Below, piece after piece: positions 7,746 through 33,436 of a stretch of 33,436 nucleotides of DNA. The position numbers were made by a program, and so were the translations under genes. Numbering within the stretch: the stretch's first letter is position 1; each line of letters begins with the position of its first letter. The stretch comes from Planctomycetota bacterium (lineage in GTDB: Bacteria > Planctomycetota > Planctomycetia > Pirellulales > Lacipirellulaceae): NCBI GenBank assembly GCA_039190745.1, contig JBCCXZ010000043.1:1-33436 (forward strand), given 5' to 3'. The notes beneath the pieces are model-generated. The model had not been told where the DNA came from, searched no databases, and saw nothing but the letters and a program-made list of their open reading frames with translations.

Positions 7746-8003
7746 CTCTCGATTCTAGTAGCGGCCTCGGTGGATCGACACACCGCGTGCGTGAAAAAGA
7801 GAAAGGTGTGCGCTGCGGTTACGCCCGTTCGGGTCAAACTCGCATTAGGATGTTTGGCGAATGCTGACGCCTTGTTGATTCAAGCATCTATTCGTGGGCC
7901 ATTGGGGTTTCTGGGGCAAGATGGGTCTGCCTGTGTGCTTTTTGTGCGAGCAGCGTTCACGCTTTCTTAACGTGCTCCACCGCGTGCCCGGCTATAGGTT
8001 CGA

Positions 8004-9491: not shown

Positions 9492-11790
9492 CATGTCTCG
9501 ATGGACGCACGCCTTGCATGCCTTAGTACTCCTGCTGGTGTTGGGTTCGGCCCCCGCGGCGGCCCAACTTTCCGCGATCCACGCCGCGGTGAATCCACTG
9601 GTCGAGGAATCCATTGGCCGCGGGGATATCCCAGGCTGCGTGGTCACGATCGGGAACAGTTCTGGCGTCTACTACCAAGAGGCGTTTGGACAACGGCAGA
9701 TCGAGCCTACGCCCGAGCCGATGACGGCCGACACGGTTTTCGACCTGGCATCGTTAACCAAGCCCGTAGCGACCGCGACTTCTGTGATGCGGCTCGTCGA
9801 ACAAGGCAGCGTGAGGCTGCGGGCCCCGATTTCTGCTCATTTGCCCGAGTTCGGTGAGAACGGCAAGGGCGAGATCACTATCGAGCAGTTGCTCACACAC
9901 CAAGGTGGCTTGATAGCGGACAACAAGCTCGCCGACTACCAGGACGGCCCCGAGAAGTCCTGGGAGCGCATTTGTGCCTTGGGCCTGAAGGCCGAACCGG
10001 GGAGCCGATTCATCTACACCGACGTCGGGTTCATCGTCCTCGGGAAGCTCGTGGAGAAGGTCTCGGGCAAGCCGCTCAACGAATTCGCTCGTGATGAAGT
10101 CTTTGCCCCGCTTGGTATGGGTGAGACCGGTTTTCTTCCGCCTCAATCGCTCCACGCCCGGACTGCGCCCACGGAATTCCAAGACGGCGCCTGGCTCAAG
10201 GGCACTGTGCACGACCCTCGCGCCGCGCTCTTGGGCGGAGTTGCCGGGCACGCGGGGCTGTTCTCGACGGCAGGCGACCTCGGCCGGTACGCCCGGGCGA
10301 TGCTCCGGACGCTTCACGGCCAAGCAGCCGGGCCGCTCAGCCGCGCCGCCGCGCAAGAGATGATCCGCCCGCGGGATGTCGCCGGCAACTGGAGGGGGCT
10401 CGGCTGGGACTCCGCAAGCCGGTACTCTTCCAACCGCGGCGAACTGCTCAGCAGCCGCGCATTCGGGCACGGCGGGTTTACCGGCACCGCGATGTGGATC
10501 GACCCCGAGTTGGACCTGTACGTAATTGTGCTCTCCAACCGGTTGCACCCGGACGGCAAGGGCTCGGTCAACGATCTCGCGGGCCGGATCGGTTCGATCG
10601 CCGCAGCCAATCGCGCTCAGCGTCATCGCCCCCCTACCCCGGCGATGGCGGAAGCGGCGGTGCAGCTCGGCATCGATGTGCTGCGACGCGACGGCTTCAA
10701 GCAGCTCGCCGGCGCCCGGGTGGGTCTGATTACTAACCACACAGGATTGGACAGCACCGGGGCCAGTGCGATCGACCTCTTGCACGCCGCAGAGTCGTGC
10801 GAGCTGGTTTGTTTGTTCAGCCCGGAGCACGGCATCCGCGGCGAGCTCGACCAGTCGAAGATCTCCGACGGCGTCGATGAGAAGACCGGCCTGCCCGTGT
10901 ACAGCCTGTACGGCAAGACGCGCAAACCGCTGCCCGAGCAGCTCGCGTCGATCGACACGCTTGTGTTCGACATCCAAGATATCGGGACGCGGTTCTACAC
11001 CTACATCTCGACCATGGGCCTGGCGATGGAGGCCGCGGCCGAGTCGGGCAAGAAGTTTATCGTGCTCGACCGCCCGAACCCGATCGGCGGCGTCGCGGTC
11101 GCCGGGCCGGTGCTGGACGCGGGTTCCGAGTCGTTCGTCGCTCACCACACGATCCCGATCCGCCACGGGATGACGGTCGGCGAGCTGGCCATGATGTTCC
11201 GCGGCGAGTTGGGTATCGATGTCAAGTTGCAGATCGTCCAGACCGAAGGTTGGCGTCGCGGCGAGTATTGGGACGCGACCGGGCTGACGTGGGTGAACCC
11301 CTCGCCGAATATGCGTTCGCTGACGCAGGCCTTCCTCTATCCCGGCGTGGGGATTTTGGAGACGACCAACGTTTCGGTCGGCCGCGGGACCGACACGCCT
11401 TTCGAATTGATCGGGGCGCCGTGGATCAACCAACGCGAGCTGGCGGCCGCCCTCAACGCCCGCCGGCTGCCCGGCGTGCGGTTCGTCCCCGTCCGCTTCA
11501 CCCCCGATGCCAGCAAGCACGCCGGCTTGGTTTGCGGGGGGGTGAATATCGTCGTCACCGACCGTGCCGCAGCGGAGCCGATTGGCGTCGGGTTGCAACT
11601 GGCGTTGGAGCTGAGACGCCTCTATCCTGACGACTGGGAAGTCGGTTCACTAAACCGTTTGCTCGGCAATCAGGCCGTTCGAGAAGAGGTCTTGGCCGGC
11701 GTCCCGTTGGAACAGATCACGCAGGGGTACCAAGCCGGCGTCGACGCCTTTCTCGTCCGCCGCTCGGGGCTCCTTCTCTACGAGGAGTAG
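9478..11790 (+). CDS. Exported fusion: beta-lactamase-family serine hydrolase (AmiE-like) plus DUF1343/NamZ exo-beta-N-acetylmuramidase
   Basis: Signal peptide; FDLASLTK (SxxK), LLTH, YTD, GHGGFTG; then GLITNHTG, FSPEHG, FDIQDIGTRFYTY, DRPNP, RHGMTVGE, PSPN, GRGT. Confidence 0.92.
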   Translation: MKTLSMSRWTHALHALVLLLVLGSAPAAAQLSAIHAAVNPLVEESIGRGDIPGCVVTIGNSSGVYYQEAFGQRQIEPTPEPMTADTVFDLASLTKPVATATSVMRLVEQGSVRLRAPISAHLPEFGENGKGEITIEQLLTHQGGLIADNKLADYQDGPEKSWERICALGLKAEPGSRFIYTDVGFIVLGKLVEKVSGKPLNEFARDEVFAPLGMGETGFLPPQSLHARTAPTEFQDGAWLKGTVHDPRAALLGGVAGHAGLFSTAGDLGRYARAMLRTLHGQAAGPLSRAAAQEMIRPRDVAGNWRGLGWDSASRYSSNRGELLSSRAFGHGGFTGTAMWIDPELDLYVIVLSNRLHPDGKGSVNDLAGRIGSIAAANRAQRHRPPTPAMAEAAVQLGIDVLRRDGFKQLAGARVGLITNHTGLDSTGASAIDLLHAAESCELVCLFSPEHGIRGELDQSKISDGVDEKTGLPVYSLYGKTRKPLPEQLASIDTLVFDIQDIGTRFYTYISTMGLAMEAAAESGKKFIVLDRPNPIGGVAVAGPVLDAGSESFVAHHTIPIRHGMTVGELAMMFRGELGIDVKLQIVQTEGWRRGEYWDATGLTWVNPSPNMRSLTQAFLYPGVGILETTNVSVGRGTDTPFELIGAPWINQRELAAALNARRLPGVRFVPVRFTPDASKHAGLVCGGVNIVVTDRAAAEPIGVGLQLALELRRLYPDDWEVGSLNRLLGNQAVREEVLAGVPLEQITQGYQAGVDAFLVRRSGLLLYEE

Positions 11791-11793
11791 ACC

Positions 11794-13567
11794 TTGAAGC
11801 CTTGGAAAACGGCCAACCGCTCTCGCATTCGCAGCACAAGGCCCAGAGGCCGTTGCCCCAGTTGGGTCGCCTGCCTGCTCATCGCCGCTCTGGTTTCTGG
11901 CCGGTGGGAGATGAATAGCTGCGCAGCCGAGCCCGCCGGGCCGCTCGTCATCGACGAGTACGAGGTGGTGATTGCCGGCGGCACGACGGCAGCGCTCGCC
12001 GCGGCGATTGCCAGCGCCGAGAAGGGCGCGAAGACTGCGCTTCTCGAGCCGACCGACTGGATCGGCGGCCAGCTCACCGCCAGCGGGGTTCCCGCCGTCG
12101 ACGAGGCTTGGCACAGCATCACGGACAAGACAACCGGCAAGGTGCTGCTCGATGTTTCGACGCTTGCCCGCAAGCCGAAGAACATGACGCCGAAGTTTCG
12201 CGACATGCTGCTGGAGACCGGCTGCCCCGGGGGGTGCTGGGTGAGCCGGTTCTGCTTCGAGCCGAAGCCCGTCCTCGACGAGCACCTCCTGCCGGCGACC
12301 GCCGCGGTCGCGAGCCGGTTGACCGTCTACCCGAATACCGTCGTGAAGAGCCTGACGACCGATGAGAGCACGAAGCGCGTCACGGGGCTCGTCGCTATCC
12401 GCCGGTTCCCACGGACCGGCGTGAAGTGGCAGGGCTACGACCGCCCGCCTTCAGCCGACATCGTCGATTGGTACAGCGCCGAGCCGTCCGAGCGGTTTGA
12501 GAAACGCACGCTGCGTTTCGACGGCTCCCGGGCGGGTAAACGCTTTGTCGTGATCGAAGCAACCGAGTGGGGCGAGGTGCTCGCGCTATGCGGGGCCCGC
12601 TACTTGGTCGGCGTCGATGAATTCGACGGTGCGGTGAAGGGCGACGACACCTATGGCCAGGCGACCGTGTACGGCGTGGTGCAGGAGTACTCTGAAGAGC
12701 CCAAGATCGAGCCGGTCCCAGACCTGGGCGTCGACCGGCTTGGTTTCGGCCCCTACACCGAGCGAGACGACGCATGGGAGAAGATCTGGACCTACCGCCG
12801 GCTCCGCGGCAGCGGCGACAAGCCCCAGCCGGGGGACCTCTCGCTGCAGAACTGGGGCTACTCCAGCGAGACGAACGACGGCGGAAACGACTACCCGTTC
12901 GAGTACCTGTTCAAGACGAAGGCCGCCACCGACGAAGAAGCGGATGACTGGCACGGCGGTGTCGACCTCGGCGTGCTGGAGGCTTCGGAAAAGCGGGCGC
13001 TCGCTTGGCACTACTGGCTGAAGGCGAACACGCCCGAGGGGATCGAGCCGGAGCAGATCACTCTCTCGATTGGCACGCTCGGCACGGGCCATGGGCTCTC
13101 GAAGCTGCCCTACATCCGCGACACGCGGCGTTCGATCGGCCTAGACGGCTTTGTGCTGCGGTTTGCCGACCTGAGCGGCTCGGCCTCGCAGCGGACGGGG
13201 ACCAAGTTTGCCGACCGGATCGCGATCGGCGCCTACCCCGGCGGACGTCCACCCGATGGTCGGCCGTGACTACCCAGAGTACGTCTTGGAGGTGCACGAC
13301 ACGCTGCCGTTCTACGTCCCCTTCCGGGCGCTGACGCACTACAAGTACACCAACGTGCTCGTGGCGGGGAAGACGATGGCGCAGAGCTTCTTAGCAAACT
13401 CTGCGACGCGGCTGCACCCGACGGAGTGGTCGTCTGGCGTCGCGGCGGGGTGTGCGGGGGCGATGATGGTCGAGTGGGGTTGGACCACCGAGGACGTGTA
13501 CGACCGAGTCTCACTCTTGCAAGCGGTGGTGAAAGAGAAGACGCCCATCGACTGGACGTTCAAGTAG
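11794..13567 (+). pseudogene. FAD-dependent oxidoreductase split by a +1 frameshift (pseudogene or sequence error)
   Basis: VVIAGGTTAALAAAIASA, WIGGQLT, EATEWGE, PYIRDTRR in frame 1; ADVHP, PFYVPFRAL, NVLVAGK, ATRLHPTEWSSGVAAG in frame 2. Removing one base at 13236-13241 gives one ORF of about 590 aa. Confidence 0.85.
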
Positions 13568-15230
13568 CGTTGGGTTTGGACGCTGCGCACGGGGTCTCGC
13601 GGGGGTCGTCGACTTCCTCGGGGGCGATGTGGTAGTTGTTCCACTGCACGGAGTAGGCGTCTTCGAACCACTCGCGGATCGGCCGCTCGCGGTCGGGCTC
13701 GAACTCGGGGCGGACGTGATGCGTGCCGCCGAGCACGGGGCCACGGAGCTCTCCGTCGTCGATCACCACCACCCCGCCCTTGATGACCGTCCGGGGCAGC
13801 TGGAACATCCTCTCGCGGTCGTCGTCGGGCGTGTACACGGTGATGTCGGCGTCGGCGCCGACGCCCAGGTGGCCCTTCTGCGTGAGCCCCAGCATCCGCG
13901 CCGGGGCGGCGCGGGTGACGGTGGCGATCTCGCCGAGGGTGTACTCGCGGTCGAGTTCGTACAGGCCGGTGCGTTCGCGGACTTTGTCGGGGCAGGATTC
14001 GATCAGCTCTTTGCGGTAGTGGCGGTCCATCAGCAGACGGATCAGCTGTGGGTAGGCGAGGAACGAGGCCCCGTTGGGCGAGTCGGTGCTAAGGGCCAGA
14101 CGCCAAGGGTCGTCGATCATCAGGAACCACTCGAGCCCGATGGCCCACTGGACGGCGTTCACCAGAGACTTGTTCTTGTAGCTGATAGGCGAGACGCCGC
14201 AGCCGGACTCCATCTCGGCGTCAGCGCTGAACCACTTCTTGCCGCTGAGGTTGGCGAGGAAGTGCCCGAGGGGGCCGTCGCCGGTCATGCTGGTGGTGTT
14301 GCCAAAGAGGACCTGGCCGACGTCGACGGTGATGTTGGAGTTGGCGTTGACGTAGTCCACCAGCGGCTCGGTGCAGCTGTAGAGGCCGGCCTCGTCTTCG
14401 CCCCCGCCGCCGTAGCTGTGGAACTGGATGTGGGTGATGTGCCCGCGGCGGCCTTCGAGGGCCTGCATGCTGGCGAGGGTGGTTTCCCAGTTTCCGGGTA
14501 TGCCGAGGTTGTTGCAGTGGAGGTGCATCGCGTGGGGCAGGCCGAGTTCCTCTGCGGCTTGCGCCACGCCGGCGATGATCTGCCGGGGCGAGACGTCGAA
14601 TGGTTCGATCGTTTGGTCGATGCTGTCGATCACCCGCGGGCCGCCGGACTTCCAGGCCTCCACGCCGGCGGGGTTCACGAGCTTGGGGGCGTAGGCCTTG
14701 GTGGCGGAGAGGAGCCAGGCGAGGAACGTGCGGGCCTGGTCGCGGTCTCCGGTGGCGAGGGCCTTCATCAGGTAGTGGTTGTTGCCCGCGAGGACGTAGA
14801 AGCCTTTGTCGATGCAGGGGGTGTCGTGGAACTCGGCGTGGGCGTGGCGGGCTCCGCCGGGCGGGATGGCCGCGTCGAACGCGGTGGTGTAGCCCAGGCC
14901 GGCGTATTTGTAGCCCGCGGCGAAGGTGCTGGGGACGCTGCCGAGCGTGCCGCCGCGGGTGATGGCGGTGCGGTGGAGTAGATTGTCGCCGTGGTTCTCT
15001 TCGGGCCGCATGAGCCGGGCGGCGGAGACCTTGGGGCCGGCGATGTGGCAGTGCATGTCGATGCCGCCGGGCATGATGACCTGGCCGCGGGCGTCGATGG
15101 TGCGTTCGGGCTTGATGGCCGGGTCGGTCGGCGGGGCGACGATGCGGCCGCCTTCGATCCATAGGTCTGCGACTTCTCCGTCGACGCCGTTGGCGGGGTC
15201 GTAGATGGTGCCGCCGGCGATAAGGAGCAT
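13560..15230 (-). CDS. fhcA: Formylmethanofuran dehydrogenase / formyltransferase-hydrolase complex subunit A
   Basis: YDPANGVDGE, GGIDMHCHIAG, YAGLGYTT, KLVNP, HLHCNNLG, HITHIQFHSYGG, QWAIGLE, STDSPNG, TRAAPA, KGHLGVGADAD. Confidence 0.93.
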   Translation of the reverse strand: MLLIAGGTIYDPANGVDGEVADLWIEGGRIVAPPTDPAIKPERTIDARGQVIMPGGIDMHCHIAGPKVSAARLMRPEENHGDNLLHRTAITRGGTLGSVPSTFAAGYKYAGLGYTTAFDAAIPPGGARHAHAEFHDTPCIDKGFYVLAGNNHYLMKALATGDRDQARTFLAWLLSATKAYAPKLVNPAGVEAWKSGGPRVIDSIDQTIEPFDVSPRQIIAGVAQAAEELGLPHAMHLHCNNLGIPGNWETTLASMQALEGRRGHITHIQFHSYGGGGEDEAGLYSCTEPLVDYVNANSNITVDVGQVLFGNTTSMTGDGPLGHFLANLSGKKWFSADAEMESGCGVSPISYKNKSLVNAVQWAIGLEWFLMIDDPWRLALSTDSPNGASFLAYPQLIRLLMDRHYRKELIESCPDKVRERTGLYELDREYTLGEIATVTRAAPARMLGLTQKGHLGVGADADITVYTPDDDRERMFQLPRTVIKGGVVVIDDGELRGPVLGGTHHVRPEFEPDRERPIREWFEDAYSVQWNNYHIAPEEVDDPRETPCAASKPNAT

Positions 15231-22590: not shown

Positions 22591-22747
22591 TGACGCTCGT
22601 CTACGTGCCTGGTGCGCCCAGCCGTTCGGATCAAGAAACCGTGCCGGCTAGGACGATTTTTAGGGCATCCGTTCGAGCAAGCCGGTGCGTTTCGCTAGCA
22701 GTTCGGGCGGTCGGATGCCACCCGGTAGCGCCAGTAGCAGGAACGTC

Positions 22748-24985
22748 ATGAATCAAGGCTTGTCAGCATGCCGGCAGGGCTGGGCCAGCTTCCTGAGCCT
22801 GCTCGCGCAGCCGATCAACGGCGCGTCGCTCGCGCTGTTCCGCATTTGCTTTGGCGTGGTGATGTTTGCTCATGCGGTGAAGTATCTCTGGCCGCAGGGC
22901 GGAACGACCCTGAAGGACTACCTCTACCACGAAACGAGCTTCAACTTCACTTACCCGGGGTTTGGCTGGGTGCAGCCGTTTCCCGAGCCGCTGTGGACGC
23001 TCTTCTTTGGGCTGATGGGCCTCGCGGCGCTTGGGGTTGCGGCGGGGGCTTTCTACCGATTGTCTGCCGCGGCGTTGTTCGCGACCTACACCTATATCTT
23101 TTTGAGCGAGGCCGCCAAGTACAACAACCATTACTACCTGATGTGCTTGTTCGCCCTGTTGCTGGTCTTCATGCCGGCGGACAGGCGGTTTTCTGTCGCG
23201 GCGTGGCGGCGACAGCGTGCCGGCGAGCCGGCGGGGGACGGCGCCGTCGTCCCTTTCTGGACGGTCTTTCTGCTACGGGCTCAGCTATTCATCGTCTACT
23301 TCTACGGTGGGATCGCCAAGATCAACCCCGACTGGCTGACTGGGATCCCCATGTCGGGCAAGGGCCGAGCGATCCTCGCGTACTGGACGCCGGTTCTCGG
23401 CCTGCCCGAGATCGACCCGCACTCGGTCGGCCTGTTTATCTGCTGGTTCGGGCTCGTCTTCGACCTTTCGATCGGCTTCCTGCTCGTCTGCCGGCGGACA
23501 CGGCTGCTTGGTTTCGTGCTCATGCTGCTGTTCCACCTCAGCAACCACTTCCTGTTCCCGATCGGTTTGTTCCCGGTCATGGCGTTCTCGACAACGCTGA
23601 TTTTTCTAGAGCCCGACTGGCCGATACGGCTATACCACTGGGTGCGACGCCCACGATTCACTTGGCCGGATCGACGGTGGGCGTGTTGGGGCGCCTGTGC
23701 GCTGCCGCCCGTCGGTTTCTTGCTAGGGTGGAAGGACCGGAGCAGTGGTCTTGCCGGTCCGGAACGGAAGCGGTTATCGCCCTGGGTGGTTGGATGCATC
23801 CTTGCCTTTCTGTCCGTCCAGGCCGCCGCCCCCTTCCGCCACCTGACGATTGGCGGGGACGCAAACTGGACCGAAGAAGGGCAGGACTTCAGTTGGCGGA
23901 TGATGCTGCGCGCCAAAGACGCCAGCCACGTGATCTACCACGTGGTCGACGACAAGATGCTGAGCATGGACGAGCAAGGCCACATGCGTTTCGACTGGTC
24001 TCTCTGGCCCGAAGAGCGCCCCAGGACGATTTATGTGCCGATCGAGAGTTCCAAGTTCAACTGGGACCATCACCGTGGGCTGACCTCCACCTACGAGCCT
24101 TGCCATGGGCTGAGGATCTTCTGCCCGGTTGCGAAGGGCGAGGACATCGTTGCCAAACAGCAGCGGCTCAAGAGTCAATGGTTGCGGTTGTTCGGACGCG
24201 AGGTTTCCGTCGTCGAGACGATCGACTTCAGCAAGGCGGTCGCAGGCTTAGAAGGCCTATTCTCGAACACCGCCCAAGCGGCGGAGTTCAAACCCGCCCT
24301 GGATCGCCTTCGTCGTCTCTCGGGCGAAGCCGAGTCGGCGTCCGGCTTTGTCCGTGAACAAGCCCTGGCGAATCTCGGCCGTGAGATCGACGCTCTAACG
24401 CGTCATAGCGACGAGCGTGGCGTGCGAGAGATGGTGACGCGCCTCCACCCCTTCCTCTTGCAGGGGGCTTCGTTTCCTAATGTGCGATTCCTTGTGGTAG
24501 ACGACCCGCAGCTTACCGTCGATTCGACGACGCTGAACACGCTTGCCGACGGACGCGAGTCGCTCGTGTGGGTCGACCTGAGCCGGCTTCGTCCCAACGA
24601 CTGGAAGGGCCTGCCCCAGTGGTTTGTCACGTTCGAAAACCGAGAGCTGCGCACCGTTTGGAACTACTCTGGAGACCTCAATGCGATCCAGCTACGCCGC
24701 TTCAGCACATCGCCTTGGATGATCCGGCAGTTCGGATGCCACATCGCCGACGTTTGGCAGTGCCAAACGGGTCGTCGACCAAAAGTACGGGTCGTTAGCA
24801 ATCTCATGCTGAACTATCGCCTTCCTCAGCCGTTGATCGACCCGAACGTAGACATCGCTGCGACCGGCTATACGCTGCTCCGACACAACTCTTGGATCCT
24901 GCCACTCGGCAGCAAGGTCGGCAGCGCGAAAGAGAGGATTGCGGGTAGCCGGGAGACCGGAACACAATCACGGTACCAACGGTGA
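22748..24985 (+). CDS. HTTM-domain / vitamin K-dependent gamma-carboxylase-like membrane protein
   Basis: SLALFRICFG, YNNHYYL, VYFYGGIAKINPDWL, FHLSN, IGLFP, WTEEGQDFSWRMML, LIDPNVDIA, WILPL. Confidence 0.9.
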   Translation: MNQGLSACRQGWASFLSLLAQPINGASLALFRICFGVVMFAHAVKYLWPQGGTTLKDYLYHETSFNFTYPGFGWVQPFPEPLWTLFFGLMGLAALGVAAGAFYRLSAAALFATYTYIFLSEAAKYNNHYYLMCLFALLLVFMPADRRFSVAAWRRQRAGEPAGDGAVVPFWTVFLLRAQLFIVYFYGGIAKINPDWLTGIPMSGKGRAILAYWTPVLGLPEIDPHSVGLFICWFGLVFDLSIGFLLVCRRTRLLGFVLMLLFHLSNHFLFPIGLFPVMAFSTTLIFLEPDWPIRLYHWVRRPRFTWPDRRWACWGACALPPVGFLLGWKDRSSGLAGPERKRLSPWVVGCILAFLSVQAAAPFRHLTIGGDANWTEEGQDFSWRMMLRAKDASHVIYHVVDDKMLSMDEQGHMRFDWSLWPEERPRTIYVPIESSKFNWDHHRGLTSTYEPCHGLRIFCPVAKGEDIVAKQQRLKSQWLRLFGREVSVVETIDFSKAVAGLEGLFSNTAQAAEFKPALDRLRRLSGEAESASGFVREQALANLGREIDALTRHSDERGVREMVTRLHPFLLQGASFPNVRFLVVDDPQLTVDSTTLNTLADGRESLVWVDLSRLRPNDWKGLPQWFVTFENRELRTVWNYSGDLNAIQLRRFSTSPWMIRQFGCHIADVWQCQTGRRPKVRVVSNLMLNYRLPQPLIDPNVDIAATGYTLLRHNSWILPLGSKVGSAKERIAGSRETGTQSRYQR

Positions 24986-25149
24986 TTCCGAAGGTACCCG
25001 GAGTCGTCATCGAAGAACTCGCTGAAGTGCGTTTGTCACGCCCAGTGATCACCAACGTCGACAGGGAGCCAGCGAGGGAGTAGAGAGGCCCAGAAACCTA
25101 GAATGCCTGATCCACGATCAGAGATTCTCTAGAGCCCCAGAGTGCCCGG

Positions 25150-26370
25150 CTACGCACGGGCGGCCAGCGCTTCCTCGACGCTGACGTTCCACTTCGGGAA
25201 CGGGTCTTCGAAGTCTTGCCACGCATCGATGCCCTCCGCTAGTTCCTCGTCCGTCAGCAAGCAGTCTTGGAGCGAGTCGTAGATGGCGATCTCGTCCATG
25301 CCGATGCCTATGAAGACCAGTTCTTGCCGGCAGTCGCCGACTTCTGGGTGCCACTTGCCTTCGAGGTCGGCTTGGAAGCTCTCCGACTCGGGCCAGTGCT
25401 CCTGCGGGACCGCGGCCCACCAGAAGCCGCCGAAGTCGAGCCGGGCGACGCGGCCCGCCTGGGACCAGACGCCGATCTTGTCGAGCCGGCTGGCGAGCCA
25501 GAAGAAGCCCTTGCTGCGGAGGACGCCGTTCCAGTCTTGGTTGAGGCGGTTGTAGAACCGCTCCGGGTGGAACGGTCGCCGGGCGCGGTACACGAAACTG
25601 CTTACGCCGTACTCTTCCACCTCGCTGGCGCCGTCGCCGCGGAGGGTCAGCTGCCAGCCCTTGCTCTGCTTGGCGATCTCGAAGTCGAAGCGTCCGGTGC
25701 CCATGATGCGCGTGGGCTCGACGCGGCCGAACGACGAACGGAGCTTGAGGGCGTGGGGGTTGAGCTGTTCGACGTAGGCCTCGACGGCGGCGAGCGCGTC
25801 GTCGTCGATCAGGTCGGTCTTGTTCAGGATGATGACGTTGGCGAACTCGACTTGCTCGGTGAGCAGATCGGCAACGGTCCGCGGGTCGTCTTCGGTGGCC
25901 GCCTGATCGAGGCTTTGCAGGTCTTTGCCGATGCGGAGGTCTTCCAGGAAGTGGGCCGCGTCGACGACGGTGACCATGGTGTCGAGGTCGGCGATCTCGG
26001 AGAGCGGCGTGCCGTCGCCGATCGCGAAGGTGAAGGTATCGGCGACGGGGGCCGGCTCGGAGATGCCCGTTGATTCGATGAGTAGGTAGTCGAACCGCCC
26101 TTCTTTGGCCAGCGACGCGACCTCGGCGAGCAGGTCTTCGCGGAGGGTGCAGCAGATGCAGCCGTTGGTCATCTCGACGAGCTTCTCTTCGGTGCGGCTC
26201 AGGGCGGCTTCGCCTCCGACGATGAGCTGCGAGTCGATGTTGACCTCGCTCATGTCGTTGACGATCACGGCGACACGCATGCCCGACCGATTGGCCAGCA
26301 CATGGTTGAGGAGCGTGGTCTTGCCCGCCCCGAGAAAGCCGGAGAGGACGGTCACAGGGAGTTTGTTCAT
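25150..26370 (-). CDS. COG0523/CobW-family zinc metallochaperone GTPase (ZigA/YciC-like)
   Basis: [69 protein letters not shown]. Confidence 0.95.
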
Positions 26371-26381
26371 TGCGTCGCTGA

Positions 26382-27041
26382 TTAAGATTTAATGGTGTAG
26401 CGATTGAGGGCTTGCGTCAGCGATTGCCCAGTGCGTTCCCAAGTGCGTTGACTGAGAAACCGCCATGCTGCCCCCGTTTTTTCGGCGTGGACGAACGGCC
26501 TGAGCCAGTTATCTACACATTCCCGGCGGTAGTCGAGGCCCGCGGTAACGCGGACCCAGTCCTCGTACTCGGCGATCCAAAGTTGGGAGAGGTTCCAGAG
26601 CTTGCGGGCGCTTTGCCACTGCGGCTTGCCGCGCGGGCGGGCGAAGACGGGCAACTCGTCGGGCCAGTAGATCGTGAGGGAGAGCGATTCGACAGGGGCC
26701 CAGCTCGGGCAGAACTCAAAACGGTTCACGAAGAGGCCGCCGAGTTCGCGGCGTCCGAAGAACATCCCGAAACCCCACAGAGCCACGTGGAACTGGTCGT
26801 GATCCAGCCGGTAGCAAGTGGACCGGTCGGCGGTGCTCTGGTCTCGGTGGCGCTCGAAGCCGAAACGCATCAGCAGATTCTCGTTGGGGTGTTCTATGTC
26901 TTTGCCCCAACACCAAAGCTGCTGCTCCATGAGCTTCCCGCCGAACCGGTGCACCGGCCGGGGGATGCACCACCCCTGCCCCGCACGCGATCGGAGCGTC
27001 GGCCGTGTGCGGTTGGTTTGCGATAGCGCGGGTGTGGGCAT
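26382..27041 (-). CDS. Uncharacterised protein, QQxWCWG family, copy B
   Basis: [36 protein letters not shown]; paralogue of 27061-27669. Start 27041 chosen to avoid overlap. Confidence 0.8.
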
Positions 27042-27060
27042 AGAGCAGACTGCTGGGCGC

Positions 27061-27669
27061 TCAACGCTTCGGGACGAACGCTTGGAAGTTCTCGGCCACC
27101 GCCGCGCCGAGGGATCTCCACGCACAAGCCATCTCCTCGGCCGGCATGATGGTTTGTTTCTCTATATTCCAAGAGTTGATTGTAGCTTGTCGGTACTCGA
27201 CACCCAGCCGCTCGGCGACGGTCGCTTCGTACTCCTGTACCCAGTCGATCAGGCCCAGCGTGAGCGAGGCGCAGGCGTCTCGCTCTGTTTCGTCTGGGGC
27301 ACTCAGTTCTGGCAGGTCGGTTTGCAGCCAGGGCGGGCGGTACAAGTTTGACTGCGTTGTGAAACGCGGCCGGAACTCGAAGCGGGGCAAAAAAATGCCG
27401 CCACGTTTATCCTCGCCGTAGAATATGCCAAACCCGCGCAGGATTACCCGTCGCCCCTGTGGGAGCTCAAGGGTGTAGACGCTGGAACACTTTTCGCGGT
27501 CGGCGGGCGGTTCGGTGCGTGTAAAGCCGGTCTCGAGCAGCCAATTACCGTCGGGCCGCAGGATGTCGCGGCCCCAGCACCAGATCTGTTGGCTGAGCAG
27601 GTCGATCGAATGTTCGATGAGTTCGCGCTCGGCAAGCCGTTGGTTGTCGCTTCGGAACGCCACACGCAT
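27061..27669 (-). CDS. Uncharacterised protein, QQxWCWG family, copy A
   Basis: SQQIWCWGRDI, LRGFGIFYG, GGIFLPRFEF, WVQEYE; ATG 1 bp after the upstream stop. Confidence 0.85.
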   Translation of the reverse strand: MRVAFRSDNQRLAERELIEHSIDLLSQQIWCWGRDILRPDGNWLLETGFTRTEPPADREKCSSVYTLELPQGRRVILRGFGIFYGEDKRGGIFLPRFEFRPRFTTQSNLYRPPWLQTDLPELSAPDETERDACASLTLGLIDWVQEYEATVAERLGVEYRQATINSWNIEKQTIMPAEEMACAWRSLGAAVAENFQAFVPKR

Positions 27670-27670
27670 C

Positions 27671-27961
27671 TCAATCAGCCTCGACGGCCATCACGGCAGC
27701 AATGTTTGCCGTTAACCATGCCGAAGCGGCAAACAACTGCAACCAGTCTCCGGTAGAGGTGATGCCGTAGGAGAACACACTGCCGATCCAGCACAAGCTG
27801 GCAACGGTCTGCCCGATCCACTCAATCTGTAGCGCTTTCGCCAGCCGGCTTGGCTGACTCTGAGACGCACCTCCGCTTCTTGCGGAGCGGTCCAGTTCGT
27901 TCGGCTTGCCTTGGATCGCAGCGGGCCCCAGCTCTGAGGCGTCTTTTGTGGTTCCGGTCAA
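27671..27961 (-). CDS. Small membrane protein (2 TM)
   Basis: TTG overlapping the oxidoreductase TGA (TTGA), GGAGAGGA upstream; IEWIGQTVASLCWIGSVFSYG and DWLQLFAASAWLTANIAAV. Confidence 0.65.
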   Translation of the reverse strand: MTGTTKDASELGPAAIQGKPNELDRSARSGGASQSQPSRLAKALQIEWIGQTVASLCWIGSVFSYGITSTGDWLQLFAASAWLTANIAAVMAVEAD

Positions 27962-29091
27962 CACACGCACTCCTCTCCGCAGCAGGACAGGTCGTCCAGG
28001 TACATGCCCCACAGGCGGTAGTTTTCGAGTTCTTCAGCCGGCAGCCCTAGCGAGGTCGCAATGGCTTTGGCGACGACAGCGAAGCGCTGTCGGTATTTGT
28101 AGATGAAGCAGAATACGTGCTGCTCGTGTCGGACCGACGGACCGCACAGGAACAGCCCTGACGTCACGGTCGATTCGTCCTTGTCGCTCAGCAGCGGGTA
28201 ACCGTCTTCGCGAGGCTCGAACAGTTCGTCGACGAGTCCTAGGCTGCCCTCGAAGCCGGTTGCGAGCAGCGGCGGCGCAGAGGTCTTGAGCTCTCCGCCG
28301 TCGTCTGTACAGACGAGGTAGTCATCGTCCTGCCGTCTGACGGCGGACACTCTGCTGTTTGGGAGCAGCTCGATTTGGTCTTTGAACCACTGCTCTCGCA
28401 TCCGTTCGAGCGAGTAGGTCGAGAGCGCGACGCTGGGGTCGGATGATTCGTCGCCCCATGGGCAGCCGGAGTCGAGCAGCCGGGCACGCTTGTCGTTGCA
28501 GGCGAGGTGGAAGGCGGCGTCGACGCCGGACTCGTAGCCGCCGACGATGACGAAGTCGTCGCCGGGCAGGTCGCCGTACGACGCAACCGTGGCGGTGTGT
28601 CGGCAGTGCTCGGCGCCCTCAAAATCAAGCCGCTTCGGGTACTGGAACTCGCCCGCCGCCCAGATCAGGTGTTTGCAGTAGAGCGTCTCTTCCGGCGTGT
28701 CGAGCAGGAACACGTCGGCGGCCTTGGTCACGCGGATCACGTCGACGCCGTCTTGCACCGGCAGCTCAAAGTACCTGGCGACGGCTTTGAGGTGTGCGGC
28801 GTACTCGGCCCCGGTCGGGTGCTCGACCTGAAGGCTGTAGGCCGGCGAGACCCCGATCGCGATGGAGTTCAGGTCGAGCATGCCGATCGAGTTGCTCGGG
28901 AACGACGGCGTGATGAACCGAGTTTCGGCGGGCCAACGGTCGAAGGAGGCGCCGACGCCGTGACGGTCGATCACCAAGAAGTCTTTGATGCCGGCGTGCT
29001 TGAGCGTGACGGCGACGCCGACGCCCGCCGCACCCGCGCCGACAACGATAGCGTCGTAAGTCTTAACGTTTGTGCTTTTCGTGGCGATCAC
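27958..29091 (-). CDS. NAD(P)/FAD-dependent oxidoreductase with Cys-rich C-terminus
   Basis: VVGAGAAG, FITPSF, WAAGEFQYP, VGGYESG, ATGF, FCFIYKYRQRF, YLDDLSCCGEECVC. Confidence 0.92.
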   Translation of the reverse strand: MIATKSTNVKTYDAIVVGAGAAGVGVAVTLKHAGIKDFLVIDRHGVGASFDRWPAETRFITPSFPSNSIGMLDLNSIAIGVSPAYSLQVEHPTGAEYAAHLKAVARYFELPVQDGVDVIRVTKAADVFLLDTPEETLYCKHLIWAAGEFQYPKRLDFEGAEHCRHTATVASYGDLPGDDFVIVGGYESGVDAAFHLACNDKRARLLDSGCPWGDESSDPSVALSTYSLERMREQWFKDQIELLPNSRVSAVRRQDDDYLVCTDDGGELKTSAPPLLATGFEGSLGLVDELFEPREDGYPLLSDKDESTVTSGLFLCGPSVRHEQHVFCFIYKYRQRFAVVAKAIATSLGLPAEELENYRLWGMYLDDLSCCGEECVC

Positions 29092-29311
29092 AGATTGGCT
29101 CTCTTCGTCTCGACGTTGTGCCTGTCGAGCTCAACCTCGTTGGTCGGGTTGTTGCTTATGCTTACGCGTCCAAGCATCTGCACATGGCCGGGAGGCGACT
29201 AGCGACGGGACAGGAGGGGTGCGGTAGTTCGGCTGTAGGGTCTGCTAAGGCTGTGCAGCAATCGGGCAGCCATCGGCAAGAATTATTGCACAATCCTAGA
29301 GGGTAGCAACA

Positions 29312-29326
29312 TGCAATACGATTGCA
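29312..29326. promoter_or_regulatory. Candidate Zur/Fur-family operator
   Basis: TGCAAT-ACG-ATTGCA palindrome in an AT-rich patch about 220 bp upstream of an operon ending in COG0523. Confidence 0.65.
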
Positions 29327-29401
29327 AGTGTGGGGTGGCGTGCCTGTCTGTGGAACGTCCTCTACGCCAGTGCGCTCTAACCTGGGAACGGCGGCGCATA
29401 C

Positions 29402-29575
29402 GGGGGACCTCGCTCCGCCCGCTTTCGAGCAGCCGGAGCGTCTCCTCGATGCGAGAGCAAATGCCGCTCGCCCGCCGCTTGTCACGCGTGCCCAGCGAGC
29501 GGCTGATGTTCCGGCATTGATGCGGAAACGGACGATGTAGTTGGGTGACTTGCTTTCTCGATGAAGGCTGGCCAT
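29402..29575 (-). pseudogene. Frameshifted, truncated N-terminus of a tyrosine integrase
   Basis: MASLHRESKSPNYIVRFRIN, then a 1-nt deletion near 29514, then RNISRSLGTRDKRRASGICSRIEETLRLLESGRSEVP; resembles N-termini of planctomycete phage-type integrases; no catalytic domain. Confidence 0.7.
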
Positions 29576-29672
29576 CCCAAGAGACTAGCGGGTACTTTCG
29601 CAATTGTAGTGACTCCAAGATCCGATGGCGTCTATTGAATGTGAGGTATTTGCTAGCACGTCAATCACTAAA

Positions 29673-29696
29673 CTACTTATCGCTACTTATCGCTAC
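29673..29696. repeat. Tandem 10-bp repeat (CTACTTATCG)x2.4
   Basis: CTACTTATCG CTACTTATCG CTAC read directly. Confidence 0.9.
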
Positions 29697-30402
29697 GAAA
29701 CCGTTTCCGCGGGTTCCGTTGCTTTTTGGCACTGAAGCGGCTTACTCGCGCGGCGGGGACAGAACCGAGCCTTTATTGGCTGGTCTGTGGCTTGGAAACC
29801 GCGGTAAGGGTGGGCTTCGCCAGCGTTGCGGGCGGACAGAACGCGGCGGCCTTTTTGCCCGAACCGGTGTGCAAAAGCCGCATTCTTTTGGCCGATGGTT
29901 GAACGCACGGAGGCGGCTTTTCTAGGGGCTTCCGCTTTCGAAGACGGTCAGAACCGGGGTGGGTTCTGCAAGGCGAGAGCAGGACGCAGCGGACACAACC
30001 GGTCGGCCCGGTGCGCGAGAACGTCCGCGCAGGCAATGGGTGACTCGGATCGGTTGTCAAAGAACAGTTGCCGGGGTATCGGATTAGTGTATACCCGATC
30101 AGGTGACCGTTTTCTACAAGAATCCGGTTCGCCGGGCTCCTGTCGGCGTCTAACGTAGGAGGGTATCCGGTGAGGTAACGGCCTAGGTCCGCCGTGTTAC
30201 CGGTCTCCTTCCACCTCTAGTTCGCGGCAAACGGGATGCATACCAATATCGCGGTCGCGCGAGAGTATCTGCCGTTGTCGAATCGTTGAGCGACGGGAGT
30301 CGAAAAAACAGGCAAATCGGCTCCCCATCAACCCGCTTCACAGTCGCTTCGAGAACGGCGTCTCAGGACTCCGGCAGTCTATGGCGGGGTCTAGCGTTGA
30401 GA

Positions 30403-30867
30403 CTACTCCCCAAGTGCTTCGCGGATTCTGTTAAGGAAGAACTCGCCAAAGTCGTGTGCTATTTGCGATTGCTTTTGCGGGCCGGACCACCACTCAACCA
30501 CTGGGTGTTCTCCGTCGTCGGATGTTTGCGAGCAATCGGTCGCGTAGAGCCCTCCGTCGCCCGTGCTGCCAACGACAATCAGGCACTCGGGGAGCTGGAA
30601 GTTCTTGCGTTCGTCGAGCGTGTACCAAATGCCGTTGGGAATGGATGAGTGGACGAAGTTGTCATCGGTCACGCCGTAGAACTCTTCGCCGGCAACGTCG
30701 CCGCACCCGAGGCGGCTGAGGAAAGCCCGGTAGGTTGGCGGGAAGGAGAATCCCAAAGCCTGTTCGGCCTTCTCAAGTAGTGCGCCTGGTTTTGAGCCGT
30801 CAAAGTCAGCCTCATCCTGGTGCTGCTCTACGAGGACGAGTGCGTGTTCCAGGTCTGCCATGCTCAT
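30403..30867 (-). CDS. SMI1/KNR4 (SUKH) family immunity protein
   Basis: LEKAEQALGFSFPPTYRAFL, GEEFYG, TGDGGLYATD, IAHDFGEF. Confidence 0.92.
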   Translation of the reverse strand: MSMADLEHALVLVEQHQDEADFDGSKPGALLEKAEQALGFSFPPTYRAFLSRLGCGDVAGEEFYGVTDDNFVHSSIPNGIWYTLDERKNFQLPECLIVVGSTGDGGLYATDCSQTSDDGEHPVVEWWSGPQKQSQIAHDFGEFFLNRIREALGE

Positions 30868-31000
30868 GCGTTAGTCTTCAGGGGCGATCGGTCGCCTTCC
30901 TGGTTGGCAAAGGCATGTCTTTACATTCATCGATTGCAATGTTGTAGCCAATAATGGCTGCCCCAGGCATTTGCTCTACGAAACTAGTTGGCGGTGTTGA

Positions 31001-31546
31001 CTACGGGTACCACCTGGCCTCGGTGAGCGGGGTGAACTCAAAGCCTTGGATGTCATGCTCGGAGAAGATGTCTTTGACCTTCTCGGTCACGAGCTTGTAC
31101 GAATTCTGGCCAGTAGGGCAAAAGAAATCTGATCCATCCCACGACAACTCGTCGAAGAACATCCCAACACGTTCAGCAAAGCGGCTTTCGGGAGATTCGC
31201 CCGGCGCCAGTGAACTCTTGCCCGCGTCAAGTGCCCCGCACCGCCCTGAAATACTAAAGCCCACGTACTCAGCACAGACTTCACCGGCTTTGTTGTGCAG
31301 GACAATAGGATAAGTGGACCATCCCGTCAGGCCATGGTTCTTGAAGACTCTCTGGACAAGAGGACTCAAGTAAAACCAGGTTACTGTGCGCCCACGCGCA
31401 ATGTCTTCGGGTTCCGGGCTTCCCATGACCCAATTGGCGGATAATGCGGATTCCGGTATCCACTCTCCTCGGAGCAACTCGTAGTCGGGGGTCTCGTTGC
31501 CAAAGTCGGCATAGAAACAGTTGTTGCCGAGAGGCGCCTGCTCCAT
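31001..31546 (-). CDS. Probable cognate immunity protein (Imm11/DUF1629-like)
   Basis: Directly after the toxin stop; LSPLVQRVFKNHGLTGW, WDGSDFF, LVTEKVKDIFSEHDIQGFEF; lower GC than the host. Confidence 0.7.
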   Translation of the reverse strand: MEQAPLGNNCFYADFGNETPDYELLRGEWIPESALSANWVMGSPEPEDIARGRTVTWFYLSPLVQRVFKNHGLTGWSTYPIVLHNKAGEVCAEYVGFSISGRCGALDAGKSSLAPGESPESRFAERVGMFFDELSWDGSDFFCPTGQNSYKLVTEKVKDIFSEHDIQGFEFTPLTEARWYP

Positions 31547-31577
31547 GTAATACAGAAGATCGAAACCAGGGAAGGCT

Positions 31578-33295
31578 CTAGTACTGCCAGTCAAAACCAA
31601 ACCTCTCTGCTTGCTCTTTTCCAAACCCGATAATCTCTTCTGGTGTTCTCGCCCTACCCATGAACCTCTCCCATGCCTTTTGGTACTGGCCGCTTGCAGC
31701 TCTGTGGGCACCTTCTTCCCACCAAGCCCCAAACGCCGGGTCATGGATGTTGATTCCAGACTTCTTGAACTTACCTTCTAGGATCTGCGGGAACACGTGG
31801 TGGGCGTCGTATCCTGCTGGTCCTTTCTTTCCAAGCCCCCAAACAGTCGAGAGATTCTGCCGGAAGTTACCTTTTGTGAATGGGTATTCGAGGCCTTGGA
31901 TTCGATTAAGCAGCAGCCGTGACTTTGACGCTCTTTCGATTAACTCTCCACCCAGTCGGGCACCACGCACGACTAGGGTCTTCGCAGCGGAGGCAGCTTC
32001 GACTCCTATGCCGGCGGCGAACTTACTCCATCCGTGCGTGTCGGACCACGAACCTGCCTCTCCGTATTCTTGCGTAATTAGGCCACGAGACCAGTCCCAG
32101 GCCTCTGCATCGTACAGAGGCAGCCGGATCGAGCCTAAGTCGGGATCGAGGATTCCGACTTTTTCTTCGGCCCATGCGATGCCGTTGACGCCATAAGCTG
32201 CAAGGTTGTATCCTTCGCCGGCGATGTCTTGGGCCGCGTTGGCAAAGTTTACGCCTGCCTGAGCTAGCCCCTTGCCTGCTCCGACGGCGACATCGCCGGC
32301 CCACCCTGCCCAACCGCCGGCCCACTCGCTCCAGGACTGCTCACTGTCGGGGCTCTGTCCGCGGACGATCGCGTCGCTAAAACCGGTGGAGACGACTCCC
32401 GTGCCCACGGAGCTGGGCGCGAACGAACCGACCGTAGCGGCGTAGTTGAACAGCGGCGAGGCGATGTTGACCGTCGGCAGGCCGATTTTGAAACCGCCGC
32501 CGCCGGCCAGGTTCAGCGCCTGCCGGCCGAGGCTCAGGAAGTCGATGCCGGTGCTGAAGCCGTTCACGCCGACGCTGGCGTTGAAGAAGCCCCACGAGAA
32601 GCTGGCCGAGAAGAGCGGCCCGACGGCCAGGCCGGCCCAGAACCAAGGGTCGCTGATCGCGGTCTTGAAGGCGTCCTCGGGGTTGCGGACGATGTACTTG
32701 AAGGAGCGGACGGTGTCGTCGAGCTTCTCGCCGACGTAGTCGTAGGAGTCCTCAACGAAGTCGATGGTGTCGTCGTACGCTTCTTCGAAGAAGTCGCCGA
32801 TGTCGTCGAAGGCTTCCTTGACCGTGTTTGTGATCTTGCGGACCAGCTTCTTGAAGAACAGCCCGCTCGGGTCGTAGTAGTTGACGGGGTCGCCGCCGGC
32901 GTAGCGGTAGATGTTGGGGTCTCCGCCCGCCAGCCCGATGGGGTCTTCGCTGATGAAGCGTCCCTGCTGGGCGTCGTACCAGCGGGCCCGGTTGTAGTAG
33001 AGGCCGGCGTCTTCGTCCCACTCGCGCCCGGCGAACGCGGCGTCGACGGCGAGGTTGTCGAAGAGGACGTGGTCGGCGGCGCCGTTGGCGTCGAGGTCGA
33101 CTTTGAAGGGGTCGATGGCCAGCAGGATCTGGCCGTGGGCGTCGTACTCAATGTGGTTGGCCAGGTCGTTGGTGTTGTTGAGCACGTCTCGGACGTTGCC
33201 GGCGTGGTCGGTCGCCGCCCAGAAGAGCCCCTCGGCGGTTGCGTCGCCGGCGTCTTCGAATACCTCGTCGAACAGCGGGGCGTCTGTGCCGACGC
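31578..33295 (-). pseudogene. RHS repeat-associated core toxin, 3' part, with DUF2380-like C-terminal domain; 5' part separated by IS
   Basis: TDHAGNVRD, YDAHG, GLYYNRARWYD, GRFISEDPIG, YRYAGGDPVNYYDPSG; tip AHHVFPQ..GINIHDP..HR..YQKAWERF. Track start 33386 lies inside the IS. Confidence 0.88.
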
Positions 33296-33436
33296 TGGTT
33301 TTCCCCCCTGAAATTGAGCCGCGTGTTGTGAGAGGATCGCATCCGGGCGAAGCCCGGAAAGGATTCTCCGACGATGAAGCGAACACGGCACACGACGGAG
33401 CAGATCATCGAGAAGCTGCGGCTTGCGGACGTTGCC
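33296..33436 (+). mobile_element. Left end of IS3-family insertion sequence (IS407-like)
   Basis: Begins TGGTTTTCCCCCCTGAAATTGAGCC (5'-TG plus C-run) and is followed by orfA; exact boundary inferred from the pattern. Confidence 0.85.
33374..33436 (+). CDS. IS3-family transposase OrfA, N-terminus (partial)
   Basis: GAAAGGA SD, MKRTRHTTEQIIEKLRLADVA; not in the ORF track. Confidence 0.88.
   Translation, partial: MKRTRHTTEQIIEKLRLADVA

Follow-up and report, generated by a model that had tools for sequence, protein, structure and literature searches.

COG0523 zinc chaperones are widespread and, to our knowledge, few of their clients and helpers have been identified. Zur-regulated clusters built around a COG0523 gene, such as those of YciC/ZagA and ZigA, are well known as a kind of system (Haas et al. 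2009, PMC2770081). In C. glutamicum, Zur directly controls the COG0523 gene cg0794 and the divergent 'oxidoreductase' gene cg0795, the latter being derepressed 45,500-fold, and a functional link between the two was suggested by the authors (PMC2823685). Here we describe a five-gene operon of a marine planctomycete (assembly GCA_039190745.1, contig JBCCXZ010000043.1), which lies in a stretch of 33,436 nt that is called the window in the following. In operon order the genes encode a flavoprotein, a small helical hairpin protein, two paralogous proteins named WCWG-A and WCWG-B, and a COG0523 GTPase. The operon stands behind a TGCAAT-N3-ATTGCA palindrome.

With the described clusters this locus shares a ZigA-like CxCC G3E GTPase behind a putative Fur-family operator, as far as the parts of the survey considered here allow the comparison (PMC2770081). 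Its relatives have zinc-transport genes and candidate zinc-independent paralogues nearby. DUF1826, one of the labels of the Zur-regulated COG0523 clusters in the legend to Figure 4 of Haas et al. 2009 (PMC2770081, considered in part), is also found in the regulon described below (contig C5 of this genome and related locus G100). The flavoprotein, hairpin and WCWG partners were not met in the portions of that paper considered; there, 'oxidoreductase' and 'monooxygenase' occur only in the Background and the references, and 'FAD' is absent (PMC2770081). The C. glutamicum pair is alike in that a COG0523 GTPase and an oxidoreductase are both under Zur, the control here being putatively of Zur type. 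It differs in that its genes are divergent instead of forming one operon, and no hairpin or WCWG protein is reported in the portions considered (PMC2823685). Full-text literature searches gave no description of the hairpin protein, the WCWG family or the trio of flavoprotein, hairpin and WCWG, and the palindrome matches no Zur box described in the literature compared. Four points appear to be new: that the hairpin and WCWG families belong to a zinc regulon, that the trio is mobile as a unit, that WCWG-B is strictly paired with COG0523, and, for Planctomycetota, the candidate Zur box TGCAAT-N3-ATTGCA.

Architecture of the operon

All five genes are on the minus strand. The flavoprotein gene (29091..27958, GTG start, 377 aa) is followed by the hairpin gene (27961..27671, 96 aa), whose TTG start overlaps the TGA stop of the flavoprotein gene by 4 nt; then come WCWG-A (27669..27061, 202 aa), WCWG-B (27041..26382, 219 aa) and the ZigA-like COG0523 G3E GTPase gene (26370..25150, 406 aa). 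The computed intergenic gaps are -4, 1, 19 and 11 bp. The ATG at 27041 is supported as the start of WCWG-B because the N-terminal motif R.GQGWC.P of this protein is conserved in B-type orthologues. In scans of the window proteins, the flavoprotein and the GTPase matched Pfam families, and the middle three proteins matched none in Pfam or NCBIfam.

A perfect palindrome, TGCAAT-N3-ATTGCA, lies ahead of the operon at 29312..29326 and is a putative site of a Fur-family (Zur-type) repressor. It is the sole match in the window at up to one mismatch, the mean of shuffled sequences being 0.01. An earlier note on this DNA, made from the sequence alone, had described both the five closely spaced co-oriented genes and the palindrome, and ORF (open reading frame) coordinates, gap computation and pattern search confirm it in both respects. 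Two nucleotides downstream of the palindrome begins a promoter-like site (29282..29309, minus strand; TTGCTA, 16 nt, AATAAT with a TG extension), which is a consensus match only, with one site found in the region against a shuffle mean of 0.5. The palindrome abuts its -35-like hexamer. Rfam, searched with 24900-30400 at E <= 0.1, had no match there, and the leader of about 190 nt is thus without a known riboswitch. A search of sequencing runs found one marine metagenome DNA run (share 0.92), with no RNA run among the matches listed.

A conserved operator and a Fur-family regulator

A pattern scan with one genome per species yielded 170 stretches, 132 of which encode a WCWG-A relative, and the best 80 of these 132 are the related loci referred to below. 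They come from Planctomycetota (mostly Pirellulales), from marine Nitrospirales and from two contigs recorded as archaeal. Their ORFs were called crudely (longest ORFs, greedily chosen), and gene boundaries in the relatives are approximate.

Together the 80 loci, 811,611 bp, hold 44 palindrome sites at up to one mismatch. Outside the Nitrospirales, such a site lies within 300 bp upstream of the first cluster gene in 26 of the 55 loci with enough upstream sequence. In an alignment of the window with L012, L023 and L085 the palindrome block is conserved; its distance to the GTG start is 221 bp in the window versus 78 bp in the closest relative, L012. With a tolerance of two mismatches, a pair of sites is seen in many loci. 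The tandem sites are offset by exactly 17 bp in L042, L045, L046, L056, L065, L072, L079, L081, L082 and others, a spacing that suggests a pair of repressor dimers bound to the same face of the DNA.

The genome from which the window was taken (3.89 Mb, 125 contigs) contains four exact copies of the palindrome, where 0.04 are expected from a base-composition model, and one further copy with one mismatch, 1.8 copies being expected at up to one mismatch. Contig C12 has two of the exact copies, spaced by 60 bp, in the region that separates a Fur-family gene from a divergently oriented second COG0523 gene. The Fur-family protein (Pfam FUR, 3.2e-11) has an HPHF and two CxxC motifs. The second COG0523 protein is 59.5% identical to the GTPase of the window. 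The whole C12 locus (L094, 5478-9810) holds the regulator, two operators, and genes for the ZigA-like COG0523 protein, a MerC-like protein, a 160-aa protein without assignment and an ArsP_1/SO_0444-like permease, the latter of the Cu/Zn permease type. Orthologues of the MerC-like, 160-aa and permease genes are found near the cluster in L019, L024 and L062. The remaining exact copy, on contig C5 (L092, 5024-6461), precedes a gene for a thioredoxin-like lipoprotein and a DUF1826 gene. The lipoprotein has a lipobox-like VATGC sequence and the active site GCPRC. As on C5, the operator is followed by a CxxC thioredoxin-like lipoprotein gene in L019 and L024, and tblastn found matches to this gene in 7 of the 80 loci.

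An orthologue of the C12 regulator (38-62% identity by tblastn) adjoins the cluster on its upstream side, in divergent orientation, in 13 loci; in L019 and L035 it is encoded nearby on the strand of the cluster. By its gene order, the combination of regulator gene, operator and target operon has the layout of a classical metalloregulator. The palindrome is thus found at the operon promoter, at the other promoters of the predicted regulon and at the regulator's own gene, and its role as a conserved operator tied to a Fur-family regulator and zinc-linked genes is well supported by these comparisons.

Zinc-related genes around the cluster

Since NCBIfam does not identify the regulator as Zur, the sensed metal has to be judged from the neighbouring genes. 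In L020 the order is Zn_ribbon_8, COG0523, WCWG, MerC, ZIP, FUR and MerC. In L013, FUR and a FeoB-like gene are accompanied by both WCWG genes (A and B), the flavoprotein, COG0523 and a ZIP gene that has an exact operator 98 bp ahead of it. Pro_CA and ABC-3 (ZnuB-like) genes are the neighbours in L022, and QueC and a DksA-type zinc-finger protein those in L048. G093 combines ABC-3, FUR, the flavoprotein, a WCWG-like gene, the hairpin and COG0523; G100 has COG0523, DUF1826, the flavoprotein and the hairpin; and in G128 a PRA-CH gene sits between the flavoprotein and hairpin genes. Two ORFs beside flavoprotein genes that lack WCWG were considered as WCWG relatives; they are unrelated to the WCWG profile and belong to PRA-CH and DUF1826 by Pfam. 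On a Nitrospirales chromosome (L026, 547-8766), genes for S18 and L28 and two COG0523 genes are followed by the trio and then by ALAD (HemB) and PRA-CH (HisI) genes. Judged by its gene content, this region looks like one long zinc-sparing supercluster, and it has neither the planctomycete operator nor a visible alternative box.

The gene classes near the cluster are those tied to Zur-regulated COG0523 genes in the considered parts of Haas et al. 2009 (PMC2770081). Comparison with the relatives, where ZIP, ZnuB-like, Fur-family, S18/L28, HemB, HisI and DksA genes are among the neighbours, gives good support to a low-zinc regulon of Zur type, and the operon very probably belongs to such a regulon. 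For the zinc-starvation operon proposed in the earlier note, the regulatory half is well supported by comparison (operator, regulator, neighbours), and the functional roles that it proposed for the genes are candidates.

Possibly the regulator senses cobalt, nickel, iron or manganese instead, and the cluster serves that metal, for example by reducing or handling cobalt as a stand-in for zinc. COG0523 members also serve cobalt and iron (CobW, Nha3), the regulator is not assigned to Zur by NCBIfam, and the second COG0523 gene has MerC-like and SO_0444-like Cu/Zn permease genes downstream. COG0523 proteins have been linked to cobalt as well as zinc in the part of the literature considered (PMC11340326). 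However, the neighbours just listed are the classical zinc set, and both GTPases of this genome score about 590 bits for ZigA (589 and 593) versus about 152-154 for CobW. We therefore regard another metal as very improbable.

Synteny and spread of the trio

With the five window proteins as tblastn queries, the usual order in the related loci is an optional upstream COG0523 gene (about 56% identical), flavoprotein, hairpin, WCWG-A, an optional WCWG-B and an optional downstream COG0523 gene (about 85%). The upstream COG0523 gene of this usual cluster is placed beside the regulator on contig C12 in the present genome. Of the 78 loci in which 400 bp or more precede WCWG-A, 63 have the hairpin. Where the flank is sufficient, the flavoprotein is present in 60 of 70 loci, the upstream COG0523 in 35 of 66, WCWG-B in 23 of 74 and the downstream COG0523 in 29 of 63; by a looser criterion, 39 of the 48 well-covered loci have some COG0523-like gene. 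The 4-nt start/stop overlap of the flavoprotein and hairpin genes recurs in relatives. COG0523 stands directly 3' of WCWG-B in 19 of 20 loci, the exception, L013, having a GTPase fragment only.

The earlier note had grouped the unknown genes together and had named, as the result that would speak against this, homologues that do not co-occur with COG0523 or with the oxidoreductase. The opposite was found in the related loci, most of which carry flavoprotein, hairpin and WCWG-A in synteny. Partial combinations occur as well: the flavoprotein-hairpin pair is present without WCWG in G128 and G100, and WCWG is present with COG0523 alone in L004, L020, L041 and L048. The cluster is thus made up of three linked units, i. 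e. flavoprotein and hairpin, WCWG, and COG0523. We consider it probable that the flavoprotein-hairpin-WCWG trio is one functional module distinct from the chaperone.

The trio is sparsely distributed. In the phylum of the window, WCWG was matched in 8 and the flavoprotein in 10 of 401 sampled genomes, with 6 genomes shared. WCWG was further matched in 4 of 301 sampled genomes from the phylum of a Nitrospirales metagenome-assembled genome and in 5 of 201 from the order of one recorded as Euryarchaeota. The genomes of the latter order are 1.3-2.1 Mb in size and the loci fetched from them have 36-44% GC. In all three loci of this order that have flank the trio genes are adjacent, and in L078 and L084 the trio stands alone among unrelated genes, with no COG0523 gene in the 6 kb upstream or in the 1.7 kb (L078) or 6 kb (L084) downstream. 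Such a sparse spread of a self-contained trio across three distant marine lineages points to horizontal transfer, as far as can be judged from gene content.

The flavoprotein

The first gene of the operon encodes an NAD(P)H/FAD (flavin adenine dinucleotide) flavoprotein with two Rossmann domains. It matches Pyr_redox_3 (PF13738) with 1.5e-90 over profile positions 1-305, has the dinucleotide-binding motifs VVGAGAAG and IVGGYESG, and ends in the tail ...YLDDLSCCGEECVC. PDB entry 3D1C ('flavin-containing putative monooxygenase'), which we take to come from Staphylococcus aureus, is matched with an E-value of 9.8e-71 over residues 13-377, the tail included. The protein, described in the earlier note as a Cys-tailed FAD oxidoreductase, is not an orphan, being a full-length homologue of 3D1C. 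No function has been assigned to 3D1C, which thus informs on the fold and not on the mechanism.

The mean column identity of 26 orthologues is 80%. The tail, WGMYL[DS]DL[ST]CCGxEC plus a terminal cysteine, is present in 55 of 55 orthologues, and its YLDD.SCC...C.C pattern aligns with the C-terminus of 3D1C. The only cysteines common to 3D1C are the four of the tail and Cys328 in the conserved FCFIYKYR block; Cys163, Cys210 and Cys316 are not kept. One protein, P0131, joins a fragment of the flavoprotein to a B-type WCWG protein and is probably a deletion or assembly artefact.

The next relatives in the PDB are the bacillithiol disulfide reductase YpdA (2.7e-9) and an entry named thioredoxin reductase (1.6e-6). 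YpdA/Bdr (PDB 7A7B; TIGR04018) is the nearest characterised relative by sequence, an NADPH-dependent two-Rossmann protein of the thioredoxin reductase kind that likewise has no CxxC pair. It differs in that the match covers only the N-terminal half of the flavoprotein (residues 12-204). Neither the cut-off for YpdA/Bdr (TIGR04018, 70.2 bits versus 339.9) nor that for thioredoxin reductase (TIGR01292, 23.2 bits versus 343.45) was reached, and every NCBIfam equivalog match is far under its cut-off.

The Pyr_redox_3 family includes flavin monooxygenases. Hence the flavoprotein might be a class-B flavin monooxygenase (N- or S-oxygenase) which, together with the WCWG proteins as new enzymes, makes or recycles a metabolite that binds metal, for instance a zincophore or a low-molecular-weight thiol. 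ArsO (3.5e-11), Lys/Orn N-monooxygenase (0.0029) and PDB 4USR ('monooxygenase') are weakly matched, which would fit, and the invariant polar residues D35, N42, R51, Y65, Y147, E148 and R160 of WCWG could line an active site. These monooxygenase matches are far under the family cut-offs, however, the conserved cluster is without synthetase, exporter or receptor genes, and a stand-alone transferring unit of three genes is small for a pathway. We give this explanation only a small chance.

The hairpin protein

The hairpin protein consists of a variable N-terminal stretch and the conserved core EWLGQT.AS.CWI.SV..YGI.S.GDWLQL.AAS.WL.ANI. The predicted structure has two helices, residues 38-65 and 70-95, with a mean pLDDT (predicted local distance difference test) of 69. 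It had been labelled a protein with two transmembrane segments. A helical hairpin is indeed predicted, but only the second helix passes the Kyte-Doolittle threshold (19-residue mean of 1.4). In the model, insertion into the membrane is likely, and polar residues in both helices suggest a binding or conducting role and not that of a mere anchor.

No Pfam or NCBIfam family was found for the hairpin. A lead to YrhK (PF14145) from the ESM Atlas (0.86, to a cluster that is 91% YrhK) was not confirmed: YrhK did not appear when 26 members were scanned with hmmscan at E <= 10. A split channel similar to CorA, with the YGI of the hairpin in place of the GMN of CorA, was rejected: the residue after YGI varies (S, T, N, D, Q). 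No row naming CorA was found among the best 50 VIA matches listed for the WCWG-A model. An electron conduit similar to DsbD, running through the hairpin cysteine, was abandoned as a firm idea because this residue is replaced in several orthologues, as detailed below.

The WCWG proteins

WCWG-A and WCWG-B are paralogues (34% identity, E 3e-26) of a family with 1116 representatives of 50%-identity clusters at E <= 0.001. The family carries no name that we could find. NCBIfam gave no match, Pfam searches with 26 members at E <= 1 gave two chance rows only, and no PDB sequence was matched at E <= 10. Look-up of the clusters of 10 diverse representatives returned 'hypothetical protein' or no name. 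In the AlphaFold model of WCWG-A (pLDDT 88) a long N-terminal helix is followed by a five-strand meander (residues 50-104) and C-terminal helices, and the protein is accordingly predicted to be a soluble helical bundle with an inserted five-strand beta meander. The fold search with this model retrieved only generic helical bundles (VIA, best Z 6.9), the best Foldseek E-value being 0.31. In the ESM Atlas the neighbours of WCWG-A are unnamed clusters. The nearest named one (0.78) has DUF4304 on 15% of its members, which we took to be due to chance.

Sixteen positions are invariant in A-type, B-type and distant WCWG proteins: Q27, Q28, W30, G33, D35, N42, L44, G48, F49, R51, Y65, G90, Y147, E148, G156 and R160. 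To judge from their identity, they do not make up a typical zinc site.

A search for fused or longer WCWG proteins gave a single match, the 1346-aa 'Cladocopium goreaui' protein P0288, encoded on a contig of 7.4 Mb and composed of Pyr_redox_3, DksA-type, Gate and WCWG parts. It was not accepted as a real fusion and was taken for neighbouring bacterial genes that a eukaryotic gene caller had joined; its contig is most likely a planctomycete chromosome inside a dinoflagellate assembly.

FolE2, HemB, HisI, DksA2 and paralogues of ribosomal proteins fill Zur regulons as zinc-independent replacements. The trio, or WCWG alone, could likewise replace a zinc-dependent enzyme or complex and be merely co-regulated with COG0523. 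Candidate paralogues of this kind adjoin the cluster (S18, L28, ALAD and PRA-CH in L026; PRA-CH in G128), the invariant WCWG residues are mostly not metal ligands, and in 9 of 48 loci the trio is found without COG0523. Yet WCWG resembles no known enzyme by sequence or fold, the invariant four-cysteine tail of the flavoprotein looks like a metal or redox site and not like a metal-free design, and WCWG-B is tightly coupled to COG0523 (19/20). On balance a zinc-sparing substitute is unlikely.

The COG0523 GTPase

The GTPase of the window contains the cobW (PF02492, 1.5e-56) and CobW_C (PF07683, 3.6e-24) domains, and its GCICC sequence, a CxCC motif, starts at residue 70. Its NCBIfam matches are ZigA (NF038288) with 593 bits, MRF with 185 and CobW with 151.5. 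With 593 bits it remains under the ZigA cut-off of 600 and is for this reason named ZigA-like and not ZigA.

Clients of COG0523 proteins are often encoded nearby. This pattern raises the question whether the flavoprotein, with its tail as a Zn(Cys)4 site, and/or the WCWG proteins are metallated first by the neighbouring COG0523 protein under starvation. That the four-cysteine tail is invariant and common to 3D1C would agree with such clients, as would the position of COG0523 directly 3' of WCWG-B in all but one of 20 loci. On the other hand, the induction of a zinc-requiring protein in starvation costs zinc unless its function is then essential, WCWG is without a conserved set of ligands, and in 9 of 48 loci, as on the contigs recorded as archaeal, the trio has no COG0523 gene nearby. 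That the trio proteins are clients of the chaperone seems quite unlikely to us.

Proposed mechanism

The reading that we favour, at about even chances, is that of a low-zinc operon repressed by a Zur-type regulator and composed of a ZigA-like chaperone unit and the flavoprotein-hairpin-WCWG trio. When zinc is low, the regulator would leave the operator. The flavoprotein, held at the membrane by the hairpin, would use its cysteine tail and NAD(P)H for thiol-disulfide or metal-thiolate chemistry; this chemistry could free thiolate-bound zinc or keep zinc transferable, and the COG0523 chaperones would then receive the zinc at their CxCC site. The WCWG proteins, which have arisen by duplication into A and B in this lineage, may be accessory or adaptor subunits, with WCWG-B tied to the downstream chaperone. 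Thiol chemistry is proposed because of the kinship of the flavoprotein to YpdA and thioredoxin reductase, its invariant tail and the thioredoxin-like lipoprotein that recurs behind the operator. This thiol or metal-thiolate hand-over is put forward tentatively, as possible but somewhat doubtful. Gene order, conservation, family assignments and the operator with its distribution in the genome are results of computation; repression by zinc, the membrane location, the redox role of the tail and any contacts between the proteins are features that we infer.

Mercuric reductase, MerA, is a flavoprotein in which a C-terminal vicinal cysteine pair takes a thiophilic metal from small membrane proteins (MerT/MerF/MerC). 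We used it as a working analogy, and MerC-like genes belong to the regulon here. MerA differs in that no sequence relationship was found, in that Zn(II) cannot be reduced like Hg(II), and in that the hairpin is without a cysteine pair.

Several observations weigh against the favoured reading. On the side of regulation, not one of the 15 Nitrospirales loci has a palindrome site ahead of its cluster, and an alignment of 10 of their loci revealed no alternative (Fur-type) box upstream of the flavoprotein genes. NCBIfam gives the C12 regulator no Zur call and only weak Fur and PerR matches of at most 38.6 bits. Both GTPases of the genome are just under the ZigA equivalog cut-off (593 and 589 versus 600). 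On the side of chemistry, Zn(II) is not redox-active, and the role of the flavin must therefore be indirect. Inspection of the flavoprotein sequence showed no CxxC pair, and Cys163 as an active-site cysteine like that of thioredoxin reductase was dropped, since 3D1C does not keep it. The cysteine of the hairpin is missing in some orthologues, e. g. in L019, L055, L071 and L082, which have F or S instead. The invariant residues of WCWG hold few classical metal ligands, Cys31 being only nearly invariant. In nine of the 48 well-covered loci, COG0523 genes are absent over a range of about 6 kb, and the trio is thus without a strict need for a neighbouring chaperone. Finally, it could not be confirmed that cg0795 of C. 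glutamicum belongs to the 3D1C family of flavoproteins. Co-folding of the flavoprotein and the hairpin with WCWG-A as the partner gave a score of 0.00 in two runs, which, with controls not run, is no evidence either way.

A bolder version of the favoured reading is that the trio is a new, horizontally mobile zinc-scarcity machine of the ocean, in which the flavoprotein docks on the hairpin and liberates or captures thiolate-bound zinc, with WCWG as a new class of COG0523 partners, either adaptors or dedicated clients, that would link the machine with the chaperone. We rate it as rather unlikely in this full form. If true, ZigA-type chaperones outside pathogens would for the first time have a defined set of partners to which they are linked genetically.

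Surroundings of the operon

Convergent with the operon, at 22685-24985 (plus strand), lies a gene whose product of 766 aa combines an HTTM domain (4.9e-73) with a vitamin-K-dependent gamma-carboxylase lumenal domain (1.9e-28). This gene is not kept beside the cluster in annotated relatives. On the other side, at 30403-33386 (minus strand), a SUKH/SMI1-KNR4 immunity-like gene (30403-30867) is followed by ORFs of 247 and 602 aa without a Pfam family. Directly upstream of the operon promoter region, this segment looks like a polymorphic toxin-immunity islet. The GC content drops to 54-59% across 29-32 kb of the window.

Farther away, at 4746-11790, the window contains a set for the recycling of N-acetylmuramic acid (MurNAc) and anhydro-MurNAc, namely AnmK, a BadF-type ATPase, a MurQ-like SIS protein and an SSF symporter, together with a 770-aa fusion of a beta-lactamase-fold domain and a NamZ exo-muramidase. 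An Amidohydro_3 gene is located less than 10 kb from the cluster both in the window (13560-15230, minus strand) and in L035 (120-1784, minus strand). This proximity may be a coincidence, or the gene may encode a zinc-related amidohydrolase.

Significance

The module, which is real and conserved, is relevant to the question which proteins are the partners of COG0523 proteins, and its function as given here is a proposal. Homologues are named in the cultured species Gimesia aquarii, Roseiconus lacunae and Crateriforma conspicua, so the hypotheses put forward here are testable in carriers that can be grown. As a candidate Zur box for Planctomycetota, the palindrome would permit the prediction of regulons in a phylum with little data on metal regulation. 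For the COG0523 family, the cluster offers three conserved, tightly linked and unannotated candidate partners, among them WCWG-B with its nearly constant downstream GTPase gene (19 of 20 loci). The sparse occurrence of the trio in three distant marine lineages suggests that it may be a transferable adaptation to low zinc in sea water.

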